IMG/VR virus record: IMGVR_UViG_3300045594_000145
Location: 32,001 to 96,000 of that record
DNA: 64,000 nt
Reading direction: 5' to 3' (one strand)
Source: a virus
Taxonomy: Duplodnaviria; Caudoviricetes
Part shown: piece after piece, positions 3,856-32,275 of the stretch
Numbering within the stretch: the first letter of the stretch is position 1
Layout: each line of letters begins with the position of its first letter
Translations under genes and position numbers: made by a program
Notes under the pieces: generated by a model
What the model was told of the DNA's origin: nothing
Database searches by the model: none
Seen by the model: the letters and a program-made list of their open reading frames with translations, nothing else

Positions 3856-3975
3856 AAAATCGCAGGAAAATGCGATTTTTTTGTGATCTTTTAAATTCCA
3901 TTTTCAGAAAAAACAGGATTCCACTTTTTGAAATCGAGCGGCTGTAAACGACTGGAGCAAATTTCACCCCAATCG

Positions 3976-5412
3976 TTAATTATAATTATCTTCTAAAATT
4001 CCAACCGCGTCTCCTTCTCGTTCTGACTCTTCTAATTCGTCATAACACTCCGGGCAAATTAAATCTCCATTTTCTCTCTCAATTAAAGAATCTCTATGAT
4101 ATCTTTCCCCACAAGAACCACATTCGTAAATATCTAAGCAAGTATCACACCAGAAGCCATTATCATCATAATATTCGTTACTATAACTAATTCGATCACC
4201 ACAGCCAAAACAGTACGCGCAATCCCTAGGGTTATATGAATAACTCTTACTATTACCCTCTTTAAAATTCTCTGTTGTTGCCATTAATTTGCATGGCCCA
4301 TCGTCATAGGCAACTCTTAAGTTGAAATAAGCTTGGATATCTTTTTTAGATACGTCTTTGCTATATTTATTATTAGTTAATTCATTTACGAATTTAACGA
4401 TTTCCTCTGAGAAAGCTAAATTTTGGATAGGATAGTTTTTATCAATAGTTATGGCACTTTCATCTGCAAATACCCATGCCCTAATTATTTTATTACTTAC
4501 AAGATTATCTTCCTTGTCTCCATCTGCGTCTATTAATCTATATGGCTTATCCGTTTTTAAATAAGCTAAAAAGACGTTGTGTGCAGTAAGCATTGATAAT
4601 GAATGAACATAATTACATCCAGTTGGCATCATAGAAAAGCAACTATTCCATCCCAAAGAGTTATCAGAACAAGTAATAAATTCAAATGGATCAATGCTTA
4701 TACATAAAGTACCCTTTAGTGTACTAGATCCTTCTAGTTGCGCTCCATACCCTCCAATTTGATCAATATATCCTCTGCATTGCTTTGCAGTCTTAGGGGT
4801 TATATAATTGATATTTTCTAATAAATCAATAATTTGATTAACTACTTTCGCGCATCGAGAATGCTTTTGAATAGTTATGCTCTTATGCTCCCCAGATTTG
4901 GAGACATAATTTATCTTTTCTGCCTTTGGTGTATTTAATAAAGATTCACCTAAATCACAAAAAGATGACTGAAGCCAGTCTTCTTTTACACACCACAAAG
5001 TTATTAAAACCATATCTAAATTATTATCTTTTACTTCTAACGCATCTTTTAAAATTTTACATATTTTTATAATATTGTCTGTATAACTCTTATATATATT
5101 AATCATTCTATCATCTTTTAATTCATAATTATATCCCATCTTTAAGATGTCTTCTTTTGTTATTTGTAAGTTTATTTCTTTTTCATAAGTGAATTTATCC
5201 TTAAAGATCTCTGGGATTAAAAAATCACTTTTTGCTTCTGCATAATCATCAAGATATTCTCTTGGAAAACCGTCTCCAGATCTTTCTAGATGGTTTTCAC
5301 TCTGAACAAATTTTAAATATCTGTTCATACGGTCATAAAACAAAGATTGAGCATCATCGGTTGAAAGATGATGCTCTTTAATTATTGGATTACAATTATT
5401 TATCTCGCTCAT
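3976..5412 (-). CDS. hypothetical phage protein with C-terminal Zn fingers
   Basis: 478 aa; ISIDPFEFITCS..GWNSC motif; four CxxC pairs at C-terminus. Confidence 0.7.
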   Translation of the reverse strand: MSEINNCNPIIKEHHLSTDDAQSLFYDRMNRYLKFVQSENHLERSGDGFPREYLDDYAEAKSDFLIPEIFKDKFTYEKEINLQITKEDILKMGYNYELKDDRMINIYKSYTDNIIKICKILKDALEVKDNNLDMVLITLWCVKEDWLQSSFCDLGESLLNTPKAEKINYVSKSGEHKSITIQKHSRCAKVVNQIIDLLENINYITPKTAKQCRGYIDQIGGYGAQLEGSSTLKGTLCISIDPFEFITCSDNSLGWNSCFSMMPTGCNYVHSLSMLTAHNVFLAYLKTDKPYRLIDADGDKEDNLVSNKIIRAWVFADESAITIDKNYPIQNLAFSEEIVKFVNELTNNKYSKDVSKKDIQAYFNLRVAYDDGPCKLMATTENFKEGNSKSYSYNPRDCAYCFGCGDRISYSNEYYDDNGFWCDTCLDIYECGSCGERYHRDSLIERENGDLICPECYDELEESEREGDAVGILEDNYN

Positions 5413-5849: not shown

Positions 5850-6096
5850 AATATTTATTCACTATCCTTTCTAATTCCTGCTCTTTGTCCAAGATTTCTT
5901 TTTGAAAATCTGTGCCATTACTGAATACTTCTGGATTAGTTAATTCTTCTTTTAAAACCTTATATGTAAGGAGTTTCATTGCATATCGAGATAATTCTTC
6001 TATTTTCTGTTCTCCATTCTCAATAATATACATTTGATTATGAGCAATGGGGAAATTATGATTACACCAATTGTCTCTAAATTCTTTTGCGTTCAT
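5821..6096 (-). CDS. hypothetical protein
   Basis: ORF; probable start MNAKEF after AAGGAG RBS. Confidence 0.6.
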   Translation of the reverse strand: MNAKEFRDNWCNHNFPIAHNQMYIIENGEQKIEELSRYAMKLLTYKVLKEELTNPEVFSNGTDFQKEILDKEQELERIVNKYYEIFGCDQL

Positions 6097-6189
6097 ATCT
6101 ATAATCTCCTTATCTATTATTATTATATCATAGAAATTAAAAATCGTCAATAAAAAAGGGCAGTGCGGTTTCACGCTGTCCTCTTTATA

Positions 6190-6489
6190 TTATCTAAAAT
6201 GATTTGTCGTTACAATCCTACCAATATCTTTATTATAGCAACTTTCACAGAGAGTTCTTCCATCAAAATCACTATGTTTTACGTGACCAGGCTCTATTAA
6301 TCTTTTACAGTCCTTACAAGTGCATTGTGTATTTGTATCGGTCGGCGGGACATAATAATTTCCAGAACTTGGTGAAGCGGGTGAAGAGAAGTAGCTCCAC
6401 AATAAAACTACTCCAAAAAATAATAATAAAAGCCAAACAAGCGGGTTCTTAAAAATTTCTATAAGTATCATACCTAAGAACGTAACCAT
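6190..6489 (-). CDS. membrane protein with Zn finger
   Basis: N-terminal hydrophobic helix, CKDC...CESC. Confidence 0.65.
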   Translation of the reverse strand: MVTFLGMILIEIFKNPLVWLLLLFFGVVLLWSYFSSPASPSSGNYYVPPTDTNTQCTCKDCKRLIEPGHVKHSDFDGRTLCESCYNKDIGRIVTTNHFR

Positions 6490-6541
6490 ATTTAAATTCT
6501 CCTTCTTTATAATTATATTATATCACAAAAATTAAAAAATG

Positions 6542-6823
6542 TCAAAAAACATGTATCTCAAAATCTTCTAGTATATTAGTAAGTTCTATGGCTTCTTTAT
6601 TATCAGAAGTCAAGATCCTATATATGTGAGATATCGCCGTTTCATTTTCTCTTTTACTTATGATCTTCAAGATTTCTCTATATTCTTCTGGAATTTGCAC
6701 AAGAGTTATCTCTTTATTGTCAAGTTTTTCTAAATATTCTAAAATATTTATTGTTCGATCATAACTTCCATATAATTGTTTGCTCATAGCCACTGCGATT
6801 GACTCTTTATCTTCTATTTCCAT
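6542..6823 (-). CDS. hypothetical protein
   Basis: 93-aa ORF with GAGGAG RBS. Confidence 0.6.
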   Translation of the reverse strand: MEIEDKESIAVAMSKQLYGSYDRTINILEYLEKLDNKEITLVQIPEEYREILKIISKRENETAISHIYRILTSDNKEAIELTNILEDFEIHVF

Positions 6824-6842
6824 ATAATCTCCTCTCTAGGAT

Positions 6843-6878
6843 AAAAAAATAACTGCAAGACTCTATCATGCAGTTATT
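6843..6878 (-). terminator. intrinsic terminator ending the large ncRNA
   Basis: AAUAACUGCA...UGCAGUUAUU hairpin followed by U-tract on minus strand. Confidence 0.75.
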
Positions 6879-7860
6879 AATACATAGGTTATAGCCTGTA
6901 TTCAGAATTGCACTGAATGTTATCTACTAAGACAGACAGTTTAGCAGGATTATCGCACCTGCTAGGCGACTTAGGCTGAGAAAATTGACCTTCATTTACT
7001 TACATCCTTGCTCGGTTGGCCGCGCAATTTCACACAACTGTTTTACAATTGTAGTAAGTATCGACACTGGTTTTGTGAAAACCAGCAAACTCTTACTATA
7101 TCCTCAGATAACTTTCCTTTCCTAACAGCTCCCCTTGGAAGGGTTCGATAGCTCCCGCCACCTAAGTTAAATTAGTAATTGTACTTGTTTGCCCTATACC
7201 TTGCGAGCTAGTAGCATCTGTATGTTACAACAGAATAAGTCGATATGTCAGAATATAGTCGAGCACGCTTTTGCTTTTGTTAGAAAACTTTTCAATATCC
7301 AATTGATTTTTCATATTTTCATAAAAGTTTCGCGTAATAACGATTTATTAGTCGATGTGGTGCTCGTTCGGTATCCCACTCTTTTGGAGTGGATCCAACC
7401 AACACCGCCTTCCTTTCGCGTCACCTACTCAGTTTATTTGCTGTTTACAAGTGATGTTTCAATCGACTCGTTGCAAATAATGAAGCCCGCACTTAAGTTT
7501 GACGAACTTTGCACGAACAACCTCTATCCGTAATCGTATATTTCTATACTTATTTACCGGCTACGAACCGATAACTGCTCTAATAACTATAAAATCTGCA
7601 CGAAGTTATAGCTAGCACTACGCATAATATAGAGTCTTTCTGTGGAAGCATTACACTCGCAAAGCACGTTGAACTTTGCTTTGGCCCCATTACTGGGGTT
7701 ATCCTTGGCTACGGCTACGAAGACTAGCCGCTGAGAATTTAGCTTATTGACCGAAGTCATAATTTCTAGGCAATACCACGTAGAGGTATCTCAATCATTG
7801 CCCGACTGGCTTGCGCCAGCTTCTTTTGTCGTTTCTATTAATAAATTAAGTTTTCCTTAA
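6850..7860 (-). ncRNA. large structured ncRNA, ROOL/GOLLD class (ROOL favoured)
   Basis: ~1 kb with no credible ORF between a sigma-A promoter and a terminator; dense hairpins; motifs CUGAGUAGG, GGUGUUGG..CCAAAAG..CACCAC, GCAAAAGCGUGC and 3' UCUCAGCC recalled as ROOL-like; near tRNA cluster. Confidence 0.65.
7732..7803 (-). ncRNA. HDV-like (theta-type) ribozyme R7
   Basis: P1 GGGCAAU/AUUGCCU, P2 UGAGAU/AU(U)CUCA, P3 ACC/GGU, L3 UCUACGU, P1.1 CU/AG, P4 with UUCG loop, J4/2 GCUAA. Confidence 0.85.
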
Positions 7861-7871
7861 CTTATATAATA

Positions 7872-7900
7872 ATTATATCATATTTTTTAAAATGAGTCAA
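7872..7900 (-). promoter_or_regulatory. sigma-A promoter of large ncRNA
   Basis: TTGACT-17 nt-TATAAT with TG extension. Confidence 0.8.
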
Positions 7901-8526
7901 GAAATTTTTGAAAGAATTAATTCACTTTCCGGAAGTGTTTCTACCCACTCGCAAAAAATTCTCCACTCTGGTAAACGATGGTTTTTTCTTTGAGAATAAA
8001 TAGTCTTTAATTCTCTATAGTTAGTAACTATGCGCGCAGTCAAACGGAAACCCGCAGGATTAGAATATAGAATCTCTAAATATTTCTCATTTAACTCTCT
8101 TCCATAAAGTTCTTTTTGTTCTTTTGTTTCAGCTAAATCTGATTTTTGAAGAAGATCTTCATATTTAGCAATTTTGTCTCTCATAATTTCTATGATGCGC
8201 GGATCAACTTCTTTCATATAACTTGTATCAAGATCAAAAGAAGTAATTCTGTGCATTGTAGACTGAGAGGAAACAAAATTTGCAAAACGGTATCTTTCAA
8301 ATTCTACCCACGCCTTATTGGAAAAGCAAAGATCGAACATTACGGTTATTCCAGTTAAAAATTGGTCTTCACCGCATCCTTTAGGAGAATTTGCAAGAGC
8401 TTTAACCGTCTTAGTAATCTCTGGGGTTGCTTTTGAAAGGTCTGTTAAGTAAGAAAATTTAGAGCCTTGAATAGATTCTTCTAATCCGTAAACATGGACA
8501 TTTGAAATTATATCATCAATTTCCAT
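7897..8526 (-). CDS. ThyX-fold (FAD-dependent thymidylate synthase-like) phage protein
   Basis: EFERYR..VSSQSTMHR and TNYRELKTIYSQRKNHRLPEW resemble a ThyX-related phage family. Confidence 0.5.
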   Translation of the reverse strand: MEIDDIISNVHVYGLEESIQGSKFSYLTDLSKATPEITKTVKALANSPKGCGEDQFLTGITVMFDLCFSNKAWVEFERYRFANFVSSQSTMHRITSFDLDTSYMKEVDPRIIEIMRDKIAKYEDLLQKSDLAETKEQKELYGRELNEKYLEILYSNPAGFRLTARIVTNYRELKTIYSQRKNHRLPEWRIFCEWVETLPESELILSKIS

Positions 8527-8527
8527 A

Positions 8528-8968
8528 TTACTTCTTTGCCCCCCGAGACTTCAGTCCAAGGCTTCCAAGAGGATATCTACACCATGGTATAAGATTTTGA
8601 TACATTCCTTCTGTGCCATAGAAAACAGCGATTGGTCTATTGGTATCACTTTTAATTTCCAACATTTCGCCGGTCACGTTCAAATAAACTCTTTCAATGA
8701 AGGCTGGCGCAGGGGTTAAATGGTCACATTGGAACTGTAAGAAATCTTTCTCTTGCTTATTTAGTAAAGAATATTCTTCACATTCAGATTCTGCCCATCT
8801 TTTCTGAACATCCCTACAAGACTCACTTACGCCAGGTTCGGGGTAAAAAGAACAATCACTACAGTTACAAGTGTTGCAGTCAACTAGTTTTCCATCTTTT
8901 AGTGCGATTATTTTATTTTCGAGGGCAAATTGAGCTAAAGTTTCAAGATTTTTTTCTTTGTTGTTCAT
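8528..8968 (-). CDS. hypothetical protein (Cys-rich N-terminus; C-terminal domain shared with 11545 and 33688 ORFs)
   Basis: CNTCNCSDC; L..QEKDFL...YPLGSLGL. Confidence 0.65.
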   Translation of the reverse strand: MNNKEKNLETLAQFALENKIIALKDGKLVDCNTCNCSDCSFYPEPGVSESCRDVQKRWAESECEEYSLLNKQEKDFLQFQCDHLTPAPAFIERVYLNVTGEMLEIKSDTNRPIAVFYGTEGMYQNLIPWCRYPLGSLGLKSRGAKK

Positions 8969-8999
8969 AATAATAATTACCTTTCTATGGGTTAATTAG

Positions 9000-9071
9000 T
9001 GCGTCCAGAAGGGGACGATCCTTCGACTGGCCCTTATCAGGAGCCTGTTTTTACCGTTGAACTATACGAAT
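9000..9071 (-). pseudogene. degenerate tRNA-Ile(GAU)
   Basis: D, anticodon (CUGAUAA) and T arms present; acceptor stem does not pair. Confidence 0.6.
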
Positions 9072-9117
9072 ATAAGAATCTTTAATAAGAATAACATATT
9101 TTTTAAAAATTGTCAAG

Positions 9118-9190
9118 TGGACACTTTTGGAGTCGAACCAAATTCCAAGGCTCTTCAAACCTCTGCTATAACCGTATCAGCTAAGTGTCC
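9118..9190 (-). tRNA. tRNA-Phe(GAA)
   Basis: GGACACU/AGUGUCC acceptor, UUGAAGA loop, UUCGA T-loop. Confidence 0.85.
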
Positions 9191-9195
9191 ATAAA

Positions 9196-9256
9196 TTTTG
9201 GTATCATGGCTCGAACATGAGATTGCCGACCGTTTTACCTACTAAACTATACCAAA
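9196..9256 (-). ncRNA. tRNA-like RNA lacking an anticodon arm
   Basis: Acceptor UUUGGUA/UACCAAA, D-arm, T-arm UCAUG-UUCGAGC-CAUGA; only 11 nt between D and T arms. Confidence 0.75.
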
Positions 9257-9307
9257 ATATGCTATTTTTATTTTTAAATACAGAATACTGCTATTGAATG
9301 GGAAGAA

Positions 9308-24139: not shown

Positions 24140-24691
24140 ATGGGACTAAATTTATCGCAAACTGAACGTTTGCTTTCATATAAAGTGATACTGGGATACT
24201 TCAGACACCAAAGAGTAGCAGATTATATAGGTGTCGACAGAGGAGTCATCCACAATGTGCGGCGTCACGCAGATTTAACAGAAGAAGAATTGAAGGACTT
24301 GGAATCAACTATGTACTTCAATCTCTATCCGAATGAGGTTAATGCCCTCCTCGACCTCATGGAAATGCTCCAAGTGCATGCAGAGGAGTTAACTAATAAA
24401 GATTTAACAGATGCGGAACGTGAGGCGCATATGAAAGTCCTCATGTACTACCTAAGACCTACACTAGTTGGTCGTATGGCAGGTGTCTCCGAATCTGATA
24501 TTCACAATCGGCTTACCCTTTTTAGAAGGAAGCCTCGGATCAGCGTTTACAAACAGGTTCAAGAGATATTACTTGCTGATTTCTTCCCGCTAAAAGAGTG
24601 CCTTAAAGAAGAGAATCTTTCAGAAGAAGCTCTTGAGCAATTTAGGAAGCTTGACGGCAAGGAACGTTTCAAACAAGTAAGACTCCGCTAA
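24140..24691 (+). CDS. putative DNA-binding regulator with two HTH-like segments, divergently transcribed
   Basis: QRVADYIGVDRGVIHN and TLVGRMAGVSESDIHN; own TTGACA-17-TATAAT promoter. Confidence 0.55.
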   Translation: MGLNLSQTERLLSYKVILGYFRHQRVADYIGVDRGVIHNVRRHADLTEEELKDLESTMYFNLYPNEVNALLDLMEMLQVHAEELTNKDLTDAEREAHMKVLMYYLRPTLVGRMAGVSESDIHNRLTLFRRKPRISVYKQVQEILLADFFPLKECLKEENLSEEALEQFRKLDGKERFKQVRLR

Positions 24692-27289: not shown

Positions 27290-27374
27290 AGAGAATTGGT
27301 TCTTCTACTTCGGCGGCGAACCGCTTCCTTGAATTAGTAGACTGCGCCGCATAGAGGCTTCTCTTATGCAGTCC
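27290..27374 (-). ncRNA. HDV-like ribozyme R6
   Basis: P1 GGACUGC/GCAGUCU, P2 AGAGAA/UUCUCU, P3 GCC/GGC, L3 UCUAUGC, P1.1 U-A, J4/2 AACCAA. Confidence 0.8.
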
Positions 27375-27544
27375 TAATCAAATCATAATACACATACTTC
27401 TCAGGTATGCCGAGGCTTATTTGCACTGGTCATGACTCCACGCTTATTCGCCATTTCTGCCGCAACCTACTTTCATCGCGATGTCCAGTAAGTTCTTTTG
27501 GTGTAACCATCCTAACAGTAAGGACTGGTAAGATTTGATTGTGA

Positions 27545-27610
27545 TAGATTTAGTTCTCTCGCCCAAGAGCAAGTCCAGCCGCACCCCGTGGAGGTATCTA
27601 ACTTGCGGCC
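27545..27610 (-). ncRNA. HDV-like ribozyme R5
   Basis: P1 GGCCGC/GCGGCU, P2 UAGAU/AUCUA, P3 ACC/GGU, L3 UCCACGG, P1.1 CC/GG, P4 CUCUU/GAGAG, J4/2 AACUAA. Confidence 0.9.
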
Positions 27611-27860
27611 ACCCGCTTATCTTATTGAAAGCGGTAGAAAGTCAGTTTTGCTCTTTGAAAAGCTAAGTCAACCTGCCGCCGCAGGATTTAAAGCGTACGC
27701 AACTCTTCTTTTTGGTTAAGAGAGGTATTGACGAGAGAACCGCCCCACGTCTGGGGACTTAGTGGCTTAAGCTTTGACTTCGTACAGTGCTACACTAACT
27801 GAAGTCTAGGCGTTAGTATGTCATTACATTGCAGTAATGGATACTTAATCCTTGTATTTT

Positions 27861-27931
27861 GGGTACGTCTGGAATCGAACCAAAACCTTCTCCCCATACA
27901 AGAGGAGATGCACAGCCACGCACTGTATACC
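27861..27931 (-). ncRNA. degenerate tRNA-like domain inside the ribozyme array
   Basis: T-arm UUUGG-UUCGAUU-CCAGA, extended anticodon arm UCUCCUC-UUGUAU-GGGGAGA, partial acceptor GGUAU/GUACC. Confidence 0.6.
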
Positions 27932-27959
27932 GTCAGGGTCTTTCACCAAAGGATTATTT

Positions 27960-28030
27960 GTAGAACTTTGTTTAGTCTGGAGCTACCAAATTGTCCACTC
28001 TCGCCACGGGGAGGCGTCTACTATGAGAGC
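27960..28030 (-). ncRNA. HDV-like ribozyme R4 (bulged P2)
   Basis: P1 GCUCUC/GAGAGU, P3 GCC/GGC, L3 UCCCCGU, P1.1 CC/GG, P2 GUAGAC/GU(U)CUAC, J4/2 CAAA. Confidence 0.65.
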
Positions 28031-28086
28031 ATATAGATTGCGCGGTTACTTACTTGGGCGCGCCAATGAACCGTCTGCCGCAATCT

Positions 28087-28140
28087 TGATGTATTAGTTG
28101 GATATCCAGACACGCCACGAGGAGGCTACATCATGTGTCC
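28087..28140 (-). ncRNA. minimal theta-type ribozyme R3
   Basis: GGACAC-A-UGAUGUA-GCC-UCCUCGU-GGC-GUGUCU-GGAUAUCC-AACUAA-UACAUCA; all HDV elements present. Confidence 0.92.
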
Positions 28141-28608
28141 ATCCCCTTGCCTAGGAGCTACCTAGACAGGAGTTATATGCTTTCCCTAAGCAGGGGCCGA
28201 AGCCCAAGGGGTTAGTTCGCGTGGGAAACTACCAAGGTGCTAAATCCGATCGGTTGCGCGCAATTTTCCTGACACTCTTTAGACTCGCGAGGAAAATTTC
28301 TAATTCTACGAGCAAGCTTTTCTCTTCTTTATACTTGGTGAGCGTTCATCCAAGCGGCGTTTACTTCTTTATCCTCGCATAAACACCAAAACGCGAGTCG
28401 GCCGCAGGCCGTTTATCCTTTAATTTTACCACTAGAGAAGTAGGAATATGGGTATGTTCACTCGCGGAACATACAAGTAGCGCTTTGCTCTAATCACGGG
28501 ATAGAGGTACGAGATCGGCAGTTCCTGTTTACCGCAAAGGTGGAGGTTTAGGGGTGCGTGAACCTGTTTCTTTCAATTATAACGCCCGAAGTTCTAAGAG
28601 GCAGCTTA

Positions 28609-28938
28609 TTACTTATTAGCTTTATAATTCTTCCAGAAATCGGAGTTGACTATAAAGTTATTCATATGGAGATAGAAGTTATCACTATAACCGGTTGCCG
28701 CATTAGTCATGTGATACTGATCAAACCATGCTTCTTCACTGTAACCATTTGCTCTATCGTGGAAAGTAACACGATACACTGAATTGACGCCACTGTGGTC
28801 TTCATACCTATTATCGTATCTTTCATGGATAACCGCGTAGAAGCGACCTTTGTAAACGTCCTTTTCTATTTGTTTATTCATGTGACGAACAGCAGTTCTA
28901 GCGCGTCTTTTATTCGCTCTTACTTTTTTGTCTATCAT
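28609..28938 (-). CDS. hypothetical basic protein embedded in the ribozyme tract
   Basis: start MIDKKV after GAGGGAG RBS and promoter. Confidence 0.7.
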   Translation of the reverse strand: MIDKKVRANKRRARTAVRHMNKQIEKDVYKGRFYAVIHERYDNRYEDHSGVNSVYRVTFHDRANGYSEEAWFDQYHMTNAATGYSDNFYLHMNNFIVNSDFWKNYKANK

Positions 28939-28963
28939 GTTAACTCCCTCACTTTCTATATAT

Positions 28964-28992
28964 ATTATATCATAGATTTTGAAGATTGTCAA
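28964..28992 (-). promoter_or_regulatory. sigma-A promoter driving ORF 28609 and ribozymes R3-R6
   Basis: TTGACA-17-TATAAT with TG extension. Confidence 0.85.
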
Positions 28993-29001
28993 GCAGATGT
29001 T

Positions 29002-29057
29002 TGATGATTCTCAGTAGAAGAGCAGTTGCGCCGCGAGCAGGCGATCATCATGCAACC
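29002..29057 (-). ncRNA. HDV-like ribozyme R2
   Basis: P1 GGUUGC/GCAACU, P2 UGAUGAUC/GA(A)UCAUCA, P3 GCC/GGC, L3 UGCUCGC with compensatory P1.1 GC/GC, J4/2 CUGA. Confidence 0.75.
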
Positions 29058-29109
29058 ATATGGGGAGCCGTCTGGCAAACGACTCCCAGCAAAAGAGAGA
29101 GTATACAAA

Positions 29110-29171
29110 CGAACTTTTAGAACCCGAAGGGGTAGCCGCATTGCCACGTCAAGGCAAGTTCGATAATGCGG
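29110..29171 (-). ncRNA. HDV-like ribozyme R1 (non-canonical C at +1)
   Basis: P1 CCGCAUU/AAUGCGG, P2 CGAACUU/AAGUUCG, P3 GCC/GGC, L3 UUGACGU, P1.1 G-C, P4 ACCC/GGGU, J4/2 UCUAA. Confidence 0.75.
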
Positions 29172-31900: not shown

Positions 31901-32275
31901 TTATTTTTGAAATTCTTTATAAATCTTTTCAGTGCTGTTGTAAATCTGGTCGAGTGCATTTTCCATAAATTCGCAAATCTGTTCATCAATCACTTCAGCT
32001 TCTCTTACACAATAGTTGTAAGTAAAGAGTGCCGCATGGGTTAATTCATGCGTAATAGTCCTACGGAGTAACTGTGGTGAAAGTCCTCTTGCAATGTAAA
32101 TCTCACTTGTTTCAAAATATGTAATGCCATAAGCCCCATCATCAACAGTTGTTTCATCTGTTACCTCAGCCCTCCCAAACATGTGAGGATTTTCACGAGC
32201 CACCAATCTTACATTCCAAACAATATTACCAATAGTTACAGTGGTGGTGTCATAAATTTCATCGTTCGTTCTCAT
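31901..32275 (-). CDS. HExxH zinc metallopeptidase (ImmA/IrrE-like)
   Basis: YGITY...IYI...TITHELTHA...EQICE. Confidence 0.7.
   Translation of the reverse strand: MRTNDEIYDTTTVTIGNIVWNVRLVARENPHMFGRAEVTDETTVDDGAYGITYFETSEIYIARGLSPQLLRRTITHELTHAALFTYNYCVREAEVIDEQICEFMENALDQIYNSTEKIYKEFQK

Follow-up and report, generated by a model that had tools for sequence, protein, structure and literature searches.

The analysed window is a 64,000-nt stretch of viral DNA (Duplodnaviria; Caudoviricetes), positions 32,001 to 96,000 of IMG/VR record IMGVR_UViG_3300045594_000145, and all positions given here are those of the window. The source record is a 108.9-kb uncultured phage with terminal repeats, the terminase of which has its nearest relatives in phages of Bacillota hosts. 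The minus strand of 7900-6843 is likely to be a self-contained gene for a divergent GOLLD RNA, headed at its 5′ end by an HDV-like ribozyme whose cut would define and insulate the 5′ end of the RNA. The gene comprises the following features.

7900-7872, minus strand: promoter, with a TTGACT −35 element (7900-7895), a 17-nt spacer and an extended −10 element, TGaTATAAT (7880-7872)
~7865-7804, minus strand: leader of ~62 nt, with hairpins at 7865-7841 and 7820-7805
7803-7731, minus strand: HDV-like ribozyme R7, located with a descriptor and a custom covariance model (CM)
7730-7411, minus strand: GOLLD 5′ domain, assigned by homology to locus L147 and by a start module common to GOLLD loci
7410-6973, minus strand: GOLLD 3′ domain, assigned by an Rfam RF02032 match
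~7349-7268, minus strand: A-rich linker in the 3′ domain
6972-6894, minus strand: structured 3′ trailer with three hairpins and a 3-bp closing stem, roughly cloverleaf-shaped (z-score of −2.49)
6878-6843, minus strand: intrinsic terminator, with a 10-bp stem, AAUAACUGCA / UGCAGUUAUU (6878-6848), and a U5 tract (6847-6843)

In a promoter scan, the promoter has 11 of 12 consensus matches in addition to the extended −10 TG, from which activity and a transcription start at approximately 7865 are predicted; it overlaps the stop codon of the ORF at 7897-8526. The leader is predicted to fold stably (MFE of −17.6 kcal/mol, z-score of −5.65, with 0 of 200 shuffles as stable), and its second hairpin (7820-7805; 6 bp with a GCAA loop) ends 1 nt ahead of the predicted cut, C7804 being the final base before it. 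The terminator was missed by a simple scanner because its loop is long. The trailer was not recognized as a tRNA by ARAGORN and shows no conservation in L147. No conserved ORF is present within 6824-7896, and a 57-aa ORF at 7587-7760, which has no counterpart in L147, was rejected as a gene; Pfam searches with the neighbouring ORFs returned nothing useful. The G+C content of the gene-free stretch is 0.38-0.41, compared with approximately 0.30 in the flanks. Approximately 1.2-6 kb upstream of the GOLLD unit is a same-strand group of about 20 tRNA genes, the closest of them ending at 9117, 1.3 kb from the cut site. An initial annotation of this DNA had proposed a large ornate phage RNA near a tRNA cluster with an HDV-like ribozyme at its 5′ end, and this description holds; the dedicated promoter, the ~60-nt leader, the HDV-like fold (then placed at 7803-7732) and the terminator are all present on the minus strand, at or within a few bases of where they had been drawn.

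The same annotation had placed the RNA in a ROOL/GOLLD class, with an assignment to ROOL, and suggested a cmsearch with the Rfam ROOL and GOLLD models. The GOLLD model (RF02032) matches 6973-7410 on the minus strand over its full length (model positions 1-416 of 416; 97.1 bits, E-value of 7e-26), with an E-value below the 1e-5 criterion of Kretsch et al. and a score below the Rfam gathering score of 150, whereas ROOL (RF03087) has no match at E ≤ 10 in 6700-8050, nor any in the whole window, and the assignment to ROOL is therefore replaced by GOLLD. Low scores are not peculiar to this RNA: viral loci elsewhere that carry the canonical GOLLD motifs also score only 70-118 bits, and a divergent GOLLD branch is formed by the present RNA together with loci L147, L043, L075, L349 and L367 (77-118 bits). 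An nhmmer profile built from 72 viral GOLLD 3′ domains detects the present RNA with an E-value of 1.7e-19. All three conserved GOLLD motifs are found, namely the linker end AAAGCAAAAG (7277-7268), the CUCGCAAGG hairpin and the terminal CUCAGCCU. A search that required the first two motifs jointly recovered 84 viral loci, hereafter the canonical GOLLD set; a scan of 20 of these with Rfam reported 17 GOLLD matches, all with E ≤ 4.5e-16. A 10-bp long-range helix, in which ACUAUAUUCU pairs with AGGAUAUAGU at 10 of 10 positions, encloses the central 3′ domain with a sequence unlike the consensus. Among 137 predicted pairs compared with the L147 homologue, 47 are changed on both sides.

The 5′ domain directly abuts the 3′ edge of the ribozyme. 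It opens with a module composed of a hairpin (7729-7712, loop GUCUUCG), AGGAUAA, a CCCC/GGGG hairpin (7698-7685) and AAAG, which is common to L147, L043, L075, L016/L085 and L112 (nhmmer E-value of 7e-6 for L043). Homology to L147 extends over the whole length of the domain and includes an exact 22-nt match, AUAAGUAUAGAAAUAUACGAUU. A strain variant with A7675>G and U7663>C is compensatory in the helix 7679-7674/7664-7659, and a single-sequence MFE structure of the domain was set aside because it conflicts with helices backed by such strain covariation. The wastewater strain X4 has no listed change across 7686-7950, compared with 10 changes across 7951-8005.

By sequence and predicted structure, the RNA is thus a divergent member of the known GOLLD family and not ROOL. 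It is extremely improbable that it represents ROOL or a novel class of large RNA instead: the score under the gathering cut-off would suit such a reading, but the full-length match with preserved motifs and long-range helix, its detection by a profile of other viral GOLLD 3′ domains, the 5′ domain start common to other GOLLD loci and the lack of a ROOL match all speak against it. ROOL is likewise a large ornate phage RNA found near tRNAs, and also forms nanocages, but the present RNA matches it in neither sequence nor structure. GOLLD RNA was reportedly described by Weinberg et al. in 2009. The present RNA shares with it a variable 5′ domain (criterion of ~300-420 nt), a conserved ~415-nt 3′ domain with an A-rich linker between, and a phage context just downstream of tRNA clusters. 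Its size of approximately 830 nt (7803-6973) compares with 833 nt for GOLLD env-38, which was resolved by cryo-EM as a 14-mer nanocage (Kretsch et al. 2025, PMC12286853). It differs from GOLLD in that it is not flanked by tRNAs, in its score of 97 bits against a cut-off of 150, and in that its first 73 nt form an HDV-like ribozyme.

The ribozyme R7 is predicted to cut between C7804 and G7803, and is modelled with the following elements.

7803-7797 with 7774-7768, minus strand: P1, with G1·U as its first pair (G7803·U7768)
Between P1 and P2, minus strand: J1/2, GA
7794-7789 with 7736-7731, minus strand: P2, plus U7788-A7738 across a bulged U7737
7787-7785 (ACC) with 7777-7775 (GGU), minus strand: P3
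7784-7778, minus strand: L3, UCUACGU
A7767-U7782 and G7766-C7783, minus strand: P1.1, 2 bp to L3
Within 7765-7743, minus strand: P4, 7 bp with one bulged A and a UUCG loop
7742-7739, minus strand: J4/2 (C7742-U-A-A7739), with C7742 as the putative catalytic base

These elements follow the nested double pseudoknot order P1-P2-P3-L3-P3′-P1′-P1.1-P4-J4/2-P2′, with the HDV hallmarks of a C that opens J4/2 and precedes N-R-A, a G1·U pair closing P1 and a P1.1 of 2 bp. Five matches to a strict descriptor of this fold occur in the window, each on the minus strand, compared with none in 60 dinucleotide shuffles of the window (approximately 7.7 Mb scanned). Descriptor controls with an altered catalytic C were discarded as not independent, because the same cores were re-found with shifted junctions. 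With the custom CM R1, for which 16 ribozymes from other phage contigs served as the training set, R7 scores 43.2 bits (E-value of approximately 1e-8), and 10 of 10 modelled nested pairs are standard. The core match is partly circular, because these ribozymes had been collected by searching with the 13-nt P3-L3 core of R7 or a closely similar sequence; independent support comes from the P1 pairing and the geometry only. The Rfam model of the Faecalibacterium prausnitzii HDV-like ribozyme (HDV-F-prausnitzii, RF02682), which represents one lineage and has no pseudoknots, gives R7 18.8 bits against a cut-off of 44. The P3-L3-P3′ of R7, aCCUCUaCGUGGu, is identical to the consensus of this model, whereas R7 departs from it in P4 and in the junctions; L112, L147 and L210, whose ribozymes are clear cases, also fall below its cut-off (32-37 bits). 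The plain MFE of R7 is no better than that of shuffles (z-score of −0.45), as expected for a pseudoknotted RNA, and is uninformative.

The core of R7 recurs, with different stems, in approximately 100 distinct ribozymes of other viral contigs. The unusual P2 of R7, with an extra pair and then a 1-nt bulge after CNRA, recurs among them, and the extra pair covaries (c-G, a-U, u-A). J1.1/4 and the base preceding the catalytic C (AAAU...AG) deviate from the commonest form, AAAC...GG. On this model, the first 73 nt are probably an HDV-type self-cutting ribozyme that trims a short leader and remains as the front end of the RNA.

The RNA is represented in RNA-seq libraries, contigs from three studies together holding 6979-7796 on the minus strand.

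7050-7796, minus strand: X15, RNA-library contigs
6979-7757, minus strand: X19, RNA-library contigs
6979-7687, minus strand: X20, RNA-library contigs

One RNA contig (7417-7796) extends from the ribozyme into the 5′ domain. R7 carries no strain variant in its covered part (X15 to 7796, X19 to 7757 and X4 for the entire ribozyme). In X19 and X20, the sequence passes directly into an Illumina adapter at 6979, a position 6 nt short of the end of the Rfam GOLLD match, and this weakly suggests that the RNA has a discrete 3′ end. The three metatranscriptome runs gave 5′ contig ends at different places (7796, 7757 and ~7707) and no contigs over the leader (7804-7865) or the flanking ORFs (6000-6978 and 7797-9300); contigs do not reveal RNA ends and missing cover is no evidence, and neither observation was counted for cleavage or for transcript limits.

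The initial annotation had also called for a check of other GOLLD loci for upstream HDV folds. None of the 84 canonical loci carries an HDV-like ribozyme at GOLLD, so GOLLD generally needs no such ribozyme; the pairing does recur in L147 and L112. The GOLLD RNA of L147, a sequence also carried by L257 and L293, is homologous to the present one (~65% identical) and is likewise preceded by a promoter, a ~55-nt leader and a ribozyme, in that order, with 386 nt from the cut site to the Rfam GOLLD start, compared with 393 nt here. The L147 promoter, TTGCAT-17-TGTATAAT, lies ahead of the leader and ribozyme, and its terminator lies 14 nt past the GOLLD 3′ end. The leaders of the two phages are similar in length and unrelated in sequence, and the genes flanking L147 are dissimilar to the present phage: when L147, L257 and L112 were compared with its whole genome by tblastx and blastn, the only matches were the GOLLD region, a tRNA and short AT-rich stretches resembling promoters. 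Relative to R7, the L147 ribozyme differs in five of seven P1 pairs, in all of P2 and in P1.1/L3 (AG/U to GG/C), all of these changes being compensatory, and its P4 is reduced to a stub, the minimal form.

This comparison bears on whether the fold is active. That R7 is dead or very slow, being retained purely for a structural role in the 5′ region of GOLLD or surviving as a decaying relic, is very unlikely, although non-consensus bases flank P4, the J4/2 region is 6 nt and the Rfam HDV score is low. R7 retains the catalytic C, the G1·U pair, P1.1 and the A-A of J4/2 intact, the P2-bulge variant is common in other phage ribozymes, and in L147 every catalytic feature is preserved by compensatory change while P4 is lost, as expected under selection for catalysis and not for shape.

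Other loci place ribozymes and tRNAs at related positions. L112 has the order tRNA-Pro, ribozyme, GOLLD (148 bits), with the cut within 5 nt of the tRNA 3′ end; the ribozyme of L210 adjoins a tmRNA; and L367 has a Pistol ribozyme 5 nt past the GOLLD 3′ end. Among the 84 canonical loci, approximately 27 have a tRNA starting right past the GOLLD 3′ domain and approximately 17 have a tRNA ending at the expected 5′ domain start. A blastn search of the stretch against 50,697 phage records gave no match. Homologues of the upstream ORF were found at three loci (L002-L004), none with GOLLD or a ribozyme, so synteny is uninformative. An 18-nt conserved motif searched in viral and metagenome contigs gave mostly chance matches, real only in L257 and L293, and 117 loci were retrieved with a 14-base motif taken from the start of the 5′ domain, only 2 of them with GOLLD. 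In the literature searched, the GOLLD papers made no mention of an HDV-like ribozyme and no description of the pairing was found; no paper contained both 'GOLLD' and 'HDV-like', in agreement with the initial annotation, which had known of no such report. As judged from these sequence comparisons, the ribozyme-GOLLD pairing is rare but conserved, and not accidental.

R7 has the same nested double pseudoknot as the theta or minimal HDV-like ribozymes of Caudoviricetes (Kienbeck et al. 2024, PMC10879173), likewise occurs in a tailed phage, and has a P3-L3 core that recurs in many viral contigs. It is not of the minimal form, because its P4 has the full 7 bp. The tRNA-associated theta subgroup cuts at most 5 nt from a tRNA 3′ end, whereas the cut of R7 is not at a tRNA 3′ end, and the beneficiary of R7 would be the GOLLD RNA downstream rather than a tRNA upstream. 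A parallel for this arrangement lies in eukaryotes. The RNAs of R2 and related non-LTR retrotransposons are said to carry HDV-like ribozymes at their 5′ ends, in work ascribed to Eickbush and Eickbush in 2010 and Ruminski et al. in 2011. There too, a ribozyme at the 5′ edge frees a downstream functional RNA from an upstream co-transcript and stays as its 5′ terminus; unlike the phage unit, these are mobile elements of eukaryotes that are transcribed together with rRNA, and the RNA downstream of their ribozyme acts as an mRNA and as a template for reverse transcription, whereas here it is a structural non-coding RNA.

In the mechanism that we propose, host RNA polymerase would start near 7865 and, after approximately 135 nt had been transcribed, the HDV-like ribozyme would fold and cut between C7804 and G7803. 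The ~62-nt leader would be released with a 2′,3′-cyclic phosphate, and the GOLLD RNA would retain a 5′-OH on G1, a base engaged in the P1 stem. Since cleavage by HDV-type ribozymes occurs at the 5′ boundary of the ribozyme itself, all 73 nt would stay on the mature RNA as its leading module, immediately ahead of the conserved hairpin that opens the 5′ domain. The most likely purpose is end definition and insulation: the RNA would acquire the same compact 5′ end whatever lies upstream, be it the leader or read-through from the tRNA and ORF operon. A uniform 5′ end would suit an RNA that assembles into a symmetric multimer, and at many other GOLLD loci flanking tRNAs may define the ends through RNase P and RNase Z.

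The ribozyme might instead serve the 3′ end of the upstream RNA, either the 62-nt hairpin leader or a read-through mRNA of the ORF at 7897-8526, in the manner of a tRNA-associated theta ribozyme, its adjacency to GOLLD being a by-product of the tRNA island. Most phage minimal HDV-like ribozymes do have their cut site at a tRNA 3′ end (PMC10879173), those of L112 and L210 abut tRNA-Pro and tmRNA, and a stable GNRA hairpin ends 1 nt short of the present cut. We regard this as unlikely: neither the present locus nor L147 has a tRNA upstream of the cut, each of the two units is provided with its own promoter, and the ribozyme-GOLLD junction and spacing are conserved between them even though their leaders are unrelated in sequence.

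HDV-type cleavage leaves a 5′-OH, and the initial annotation had taken this chemistry to be the purpose of the cut, with the 5′-OH evading 5′-monophosphate-dependent decay by RNase J/Y. A role in stability would accord with the reported abundance of GOLLD-class RNAs (PMC12286853) and with the RNA-library contigs that hold the present RNA. The precedent of the glmS ribozyme runs counter to the proposal: in Bacillus subtilis, its 5′-OH product is the substrate for degradation by RNase J1 (Collins et al. 2007, as covered in the review PMC3328962), which is relevant here because the nearest terminase relatives belong to phages of Bacillota hosts. A primary 5′-triphosphate would, moreover, protect at least equally, and evasion by the 5′-OH is accordingly quite improbable as the purpose. 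Protection from 5′ exonucleases may still be a secondary benefit of end definition and insulation; given the fate of the glmS product, it would more likely come from the burial of the paired G1 in the compact double pseudoknot than from the 5′-OH.

A broader reading can be offered tentatively, as a possibility that we hold to be less than even. GOLLD may need exact ends for its cage, and phages may obtain these from interchangeable signals, namely tRNAs, a 5′ HDV-like ribozyme (here, in L147 and in L112) or a 3′ Pistol ribozyme (L367). Promoter, leader, ribozyme, GOLLD and terminator would then form a mobile, self-sufficient cassette that moves between unrelated phages, and the retained ribozyme would cap the 5′ end of each protomer.

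GOLLD RNAs are among the largest non-coding RNAs of bacteria and phages and form a 14-mer cage, and the pairing would be the first concrete statement on their maturation, namely that a defined 5′ end matters: the 5′-end ribozyme is conserved by compensatory change between unrelated phages (that of L147 and the present one). For structural and genetic work, G7803 to ~6973 is a natural construct boundary. The Rfam GOLLD cut-off misses an entire divergent branch of the family. The pairing also points to what some 'orphan' phage HDV-like ribozymes in non-coding regions, of which there are hundreds, may do, and could explain some of the 526 non-tRNA-associated matches in such regions that the theta ribozyme study records with 'unknown biological functions' (PMC10879173).

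The source record is a 108,945-bp IMG/VR virus with direct terminal repeats, and the window (G+C content of 36%) covers its bases 32001–96000. Its host probably belongs to the Bacillota, since the large terminase is 41–43% identical to the terminases of Geobacillus, Alicyclobacillus and Enterococcus phages. The elements of the RNA gene all lie on the minus strand between two open reading frames (7897–8526 and 6542–6823), and the promoter, leader, HDV-like fold, structured RNA and terminator listed in the initial annotation were all located where it had placed them.

Elements of the RNA gene (window positions)
7900–7872, minus: predicted promoter (TTGACT, 17 nt, TGaTATAAT)
Between promoter and ribozyme fold, minus: leader, ~62 nt, containing a strong pair of hairpins (z −5.65)
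7803–7731, minus: HDV-like fold, R7
After R7, minus: GOLLD 5′ domain, ~320 nt
6973–7410, minus: GOLLD 3′ domain, 438 nt, with its 3′ end at 6973 (RF02032 match)
After the 3′ domain, minus: trailer of ~80 nt with three hairpins
U-tract at 6847–6843, minus: terminator (10-bp stem and U-tract)

The downstream reading frame, 6542–6823, has a strong ribosome-binding site directly past the terminator (6824–6842) and no promoter of its own ahead, so its expression would need read-through of the GOLLD terminator.

The structured RNA is a GOLLD rather than a ROOL, the label first favoured: at permissive thresholds the RF02032 model is matched over its full length (model positions 1–416 of 416) at 6973–7410, with 97.1 bits and an E-value of 7e-26, and the ROOL model finds no match even at E≤10. 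An Rfam scan of the window at gathering thresholds returns tRNAs only, and Rfam-based annotation would miss this GOLLD because 97.1 bits lies below the curated cut-off of 150 bits. We do not think that the low score means non-membership, in view of several sequence features. The conserved motifs AAAGCAAAAG, CUCGCAAGG and the terminal CUCAGCCU are present, and the 10-bp long-range helix of RF02032 is fully paired with a sequence unlike that of the model. A two-motif GOLLD pattern retrieved 84 viral loci, 20 of which were scanned with Rfam, giving 17 GOLLD matches (all E≤4.5e-16, 70–305 bits); several large-phage GOLLDs score 95–99 bits, comparable to that of the window. A sequence profile from 72 of these 3′ domains matches the window at E 1.7e-19. 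The 5′ region opens with a module (a hairpin with a GYCUUCG loop, AGGAUAA, a second hairpin and AAAG) that is common to other GOLLD loci at the same relative place. GOLLDs have been retrieved by cmsearch at E<1e-5 and described as having separate 5′ and 3′ domains joined by a linker that sometimes holds tRNAs (Kretsch et al., PMC12286853), a description that the window's RNA fits.

The HDV descriptor asks for a P1 of 6–7 bp, a P2 of 4 bp or more, P3 NCC/GGN, L3 U..CG, a 2-bp P1.1 and a J4/2 of C-N-R-A. Its matches in the window number exactly five, every one on the minus strand: four lie at 27.5–29.1 kb and the fifth at 7803–7731. Scanning both strands of 60 dinucleotide-preserving shuffles of the window gave no match. 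R7 comprises a G1·U wobble with a 7-bp P1, a P3–L3 core that matches the F. prausnitzii consensus exactly, a P1.1 of A-U and G-C, a 7-bp P4 with a UUCG loop, and a J4/2 of C7742-U-A-A. It departs from the usual fold only in P2, where one extra pair and then a 1-nt bulge come directly after the CNRA. Pattern scans with the R7 core and a close variant retrieved ~100 distinct ribozymes with unrelated stems from other viral contigs, and among these the extra pair, which covaries, and the bulge are common. Across many phage HDV-like ribozymes (loci L089–L251), covariation (c-G, a-U and u-A) links the base that separates P2 from P3 to the base five positions past the catalytic C, and the 1-nt bulge comes next; to our knowledge, the standard HDV scheme does not show this P2 extension.

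Built from 16 ribozymes of other contigs and limited to the first 42 positions, a covariance model gives R7 43.2 bits (E about 1e-8), its top score in the window; because those 16 sequences were fetched with R7's own core, independent support comes only from P1 and the geometry. The Rfam HDV model gives R7 only 18.8 bits; the clear ribozymes of the viral loci L112, L147 and L210 likewise fall below its cut-off. Beyond R7 and the group at 27290–29171 (minus), no HDV-like ribozyme was found in the 109-kb genome.

Other HDV-like ribozymes in the window
29057–29002, minus: found by descriptor
28140–28087, minus: found by descriptor
28030–27960, minus: found by descriptor
27610–27545, minus: found by descriptor
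27374–27333, minus: found by covariance model

A candidate at 29171–29110 is matched by neither the descriptor nor the covariance model.

Both components, the GOLLD and the HDV-like ribozyme, belong to known families. In the literature searched, 'GOLLD' and 'HDV-like' never occur in the same paper, and papers naming GOLLD together with ribozymes were unrelated to the pairing. The theta-ribozyme paper left 526 non-tRNA matches unexplained (PMC10879173). At L210 (1832–2296, minus), the 3′ end of a phage tmRNA gene coincides with the cut site of an HDV-like ribozyme (RF02682, 37 bits), an arrangement that looks like theta-type processing applied to tmRNA instead of tRNA.

The pairing is not general: in the 84 canonical GOLLD loci, neither the strict descriptor, nor a relaxed version run on the upstream side, nor the covariance model found any HDV fold. 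It does recur at two ribozyme loci, L147 and L112: the GOLLD profile, run on the ribozyme loci, showed that each of these has a GOLLD on the same strand, downstream of its ribozyme. The L147 contig is viral and 48.7 kb long (same sequence in L293 and L257), and its GOLLD (77 bits, E 7e-19) is homologous to that of the window across the whole RNA, with ~65% identity and one exact 22-mer. The order is that of the window (extended −10 promoter, ~55-nt leader, ribozyme, GOLLD, terminator), and the cut site lies 386 nt from the Rfam GOLLD start, versus 393 nt in the window. Between the two ribozymes, five of the seven P1 pairs differ, P2 differs throughout, the L3/P1.1 pair changes from U with A to C with G, and P4 is cut down to a stub in L147; despite these changes, all pairings and the catalytic C-U-A-A are retained. 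The flanking genes show no similarity to the window's phage. Because layout, spacing and pairings are conserved between such dissimilar surroundings, selection has maintained the ribozyme–GOLLD unit while the remaining genome differs. RNA aside, the L147 locus resembles the genome of the window's phage (G000) only in AT-rich, promoter-like sequence (L147:7948–8006; G000 3961–4020 and 24226–24258), on which basis the two phages may use one type of promoter and perhaps have related hosts.

In L112, a tRNA-Pro is followed by a ribozyme exactly at its 3′ end, a ~70-nt spacer, the GOLLD 5′ module and the 3′ domain (148 bits), with a tRNA within the linker at 2899–2971 (region L112:2827–3328). A second L112 ribozyme stands immediately after a tRNA-Trp (5859–5924; region L112:5785–5924).

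Many sequencing runs from wastewater, manure, sludge and rivers contain the window's RNA stretch. RNA-library contigs from three studies include 6979–7796, and one contig (7417–7796) crosses the junction of ribozyme and GOLLD 5′ domain. In two riverine RNA runs an Illumina adapter is fused at 6979, a position in the loop of the final GOLLD hairpin that lies 6 nt short of the GOLLD consensus end and well ahead of the terminator; since RNA ends cannot be read from contigs, the junction hints only weakly at a discrete RNA 3′ end, and stretches that no contig covers carry no evidential weight. The ~75 nt beyond this point (6967–6894; region 6894–6979) fold roughly as a cloverleaf with three hairpins, of which the third has 6 bp and a 7-nt UGCAAUU loop; ARAGORN calls no tRNA here, and the fold could be a processing signal in place of the tRNA found downstream of many other GOLLDs.

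Strain differences are mildly informative. In one variant, A7675>G and U7663>C together preserve a pair in helix 7679–7674/7664–7659, and the CCCC/GGGG hairpin is shorter by one C and one G; the contig-covered parts of the ribozyme show no variants. A wastewater strain (sequencing run X4) is identical over promoter, leader and ribozyme (7686–7950) and has 10 differences in 7951–8005, within the upstream reading frame, its contig ending at 8045; the upstream edge of the cassette may thus be a mosaic boundary.

What sequence analysis establishes is a predicted fold that is conserved, stands right at the head of the conserved GOLLD body and has a predicted promoter of its own. The ribozyme would cut co-transcriptionally at C7804/G7803, the leader would be discarded, and the ribozyme would stay as the 5′ module of a mature RNA of ~830 nt. 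The suggestion that the resulting 5′-OH resists RNase J/Y runs against the glmS precedent, in which RNase J1 attacks the 5′-OH cleavage product (PMC3328962); if the ribozyme stabilises the RNA, burial of G1 in P1 is the more likely means. GOLLD ends adjoin processing signals elsewhere: a tRNA starts right after the 3′ domain in ~27 of the 84 loci and ends where the 5′ domain should begin in ~17. Two sub-threshold GOLLDs with the window's 5′-domain start module (117–118 bits; regions L367:3451–3916 and L349:3926–4666) have downstream, on the same strand, a Pistol ribozyme above its Rfam cut-off, 5 nt past the GOLLD 3′ end in L367 and 280 nt past it in L349. Given these signals, and because GOLLD assembles as a D7 14-mer (PMC12286853) needing uniform protomers, we favour end definition, together with insulation, as the purpose of cleavage.
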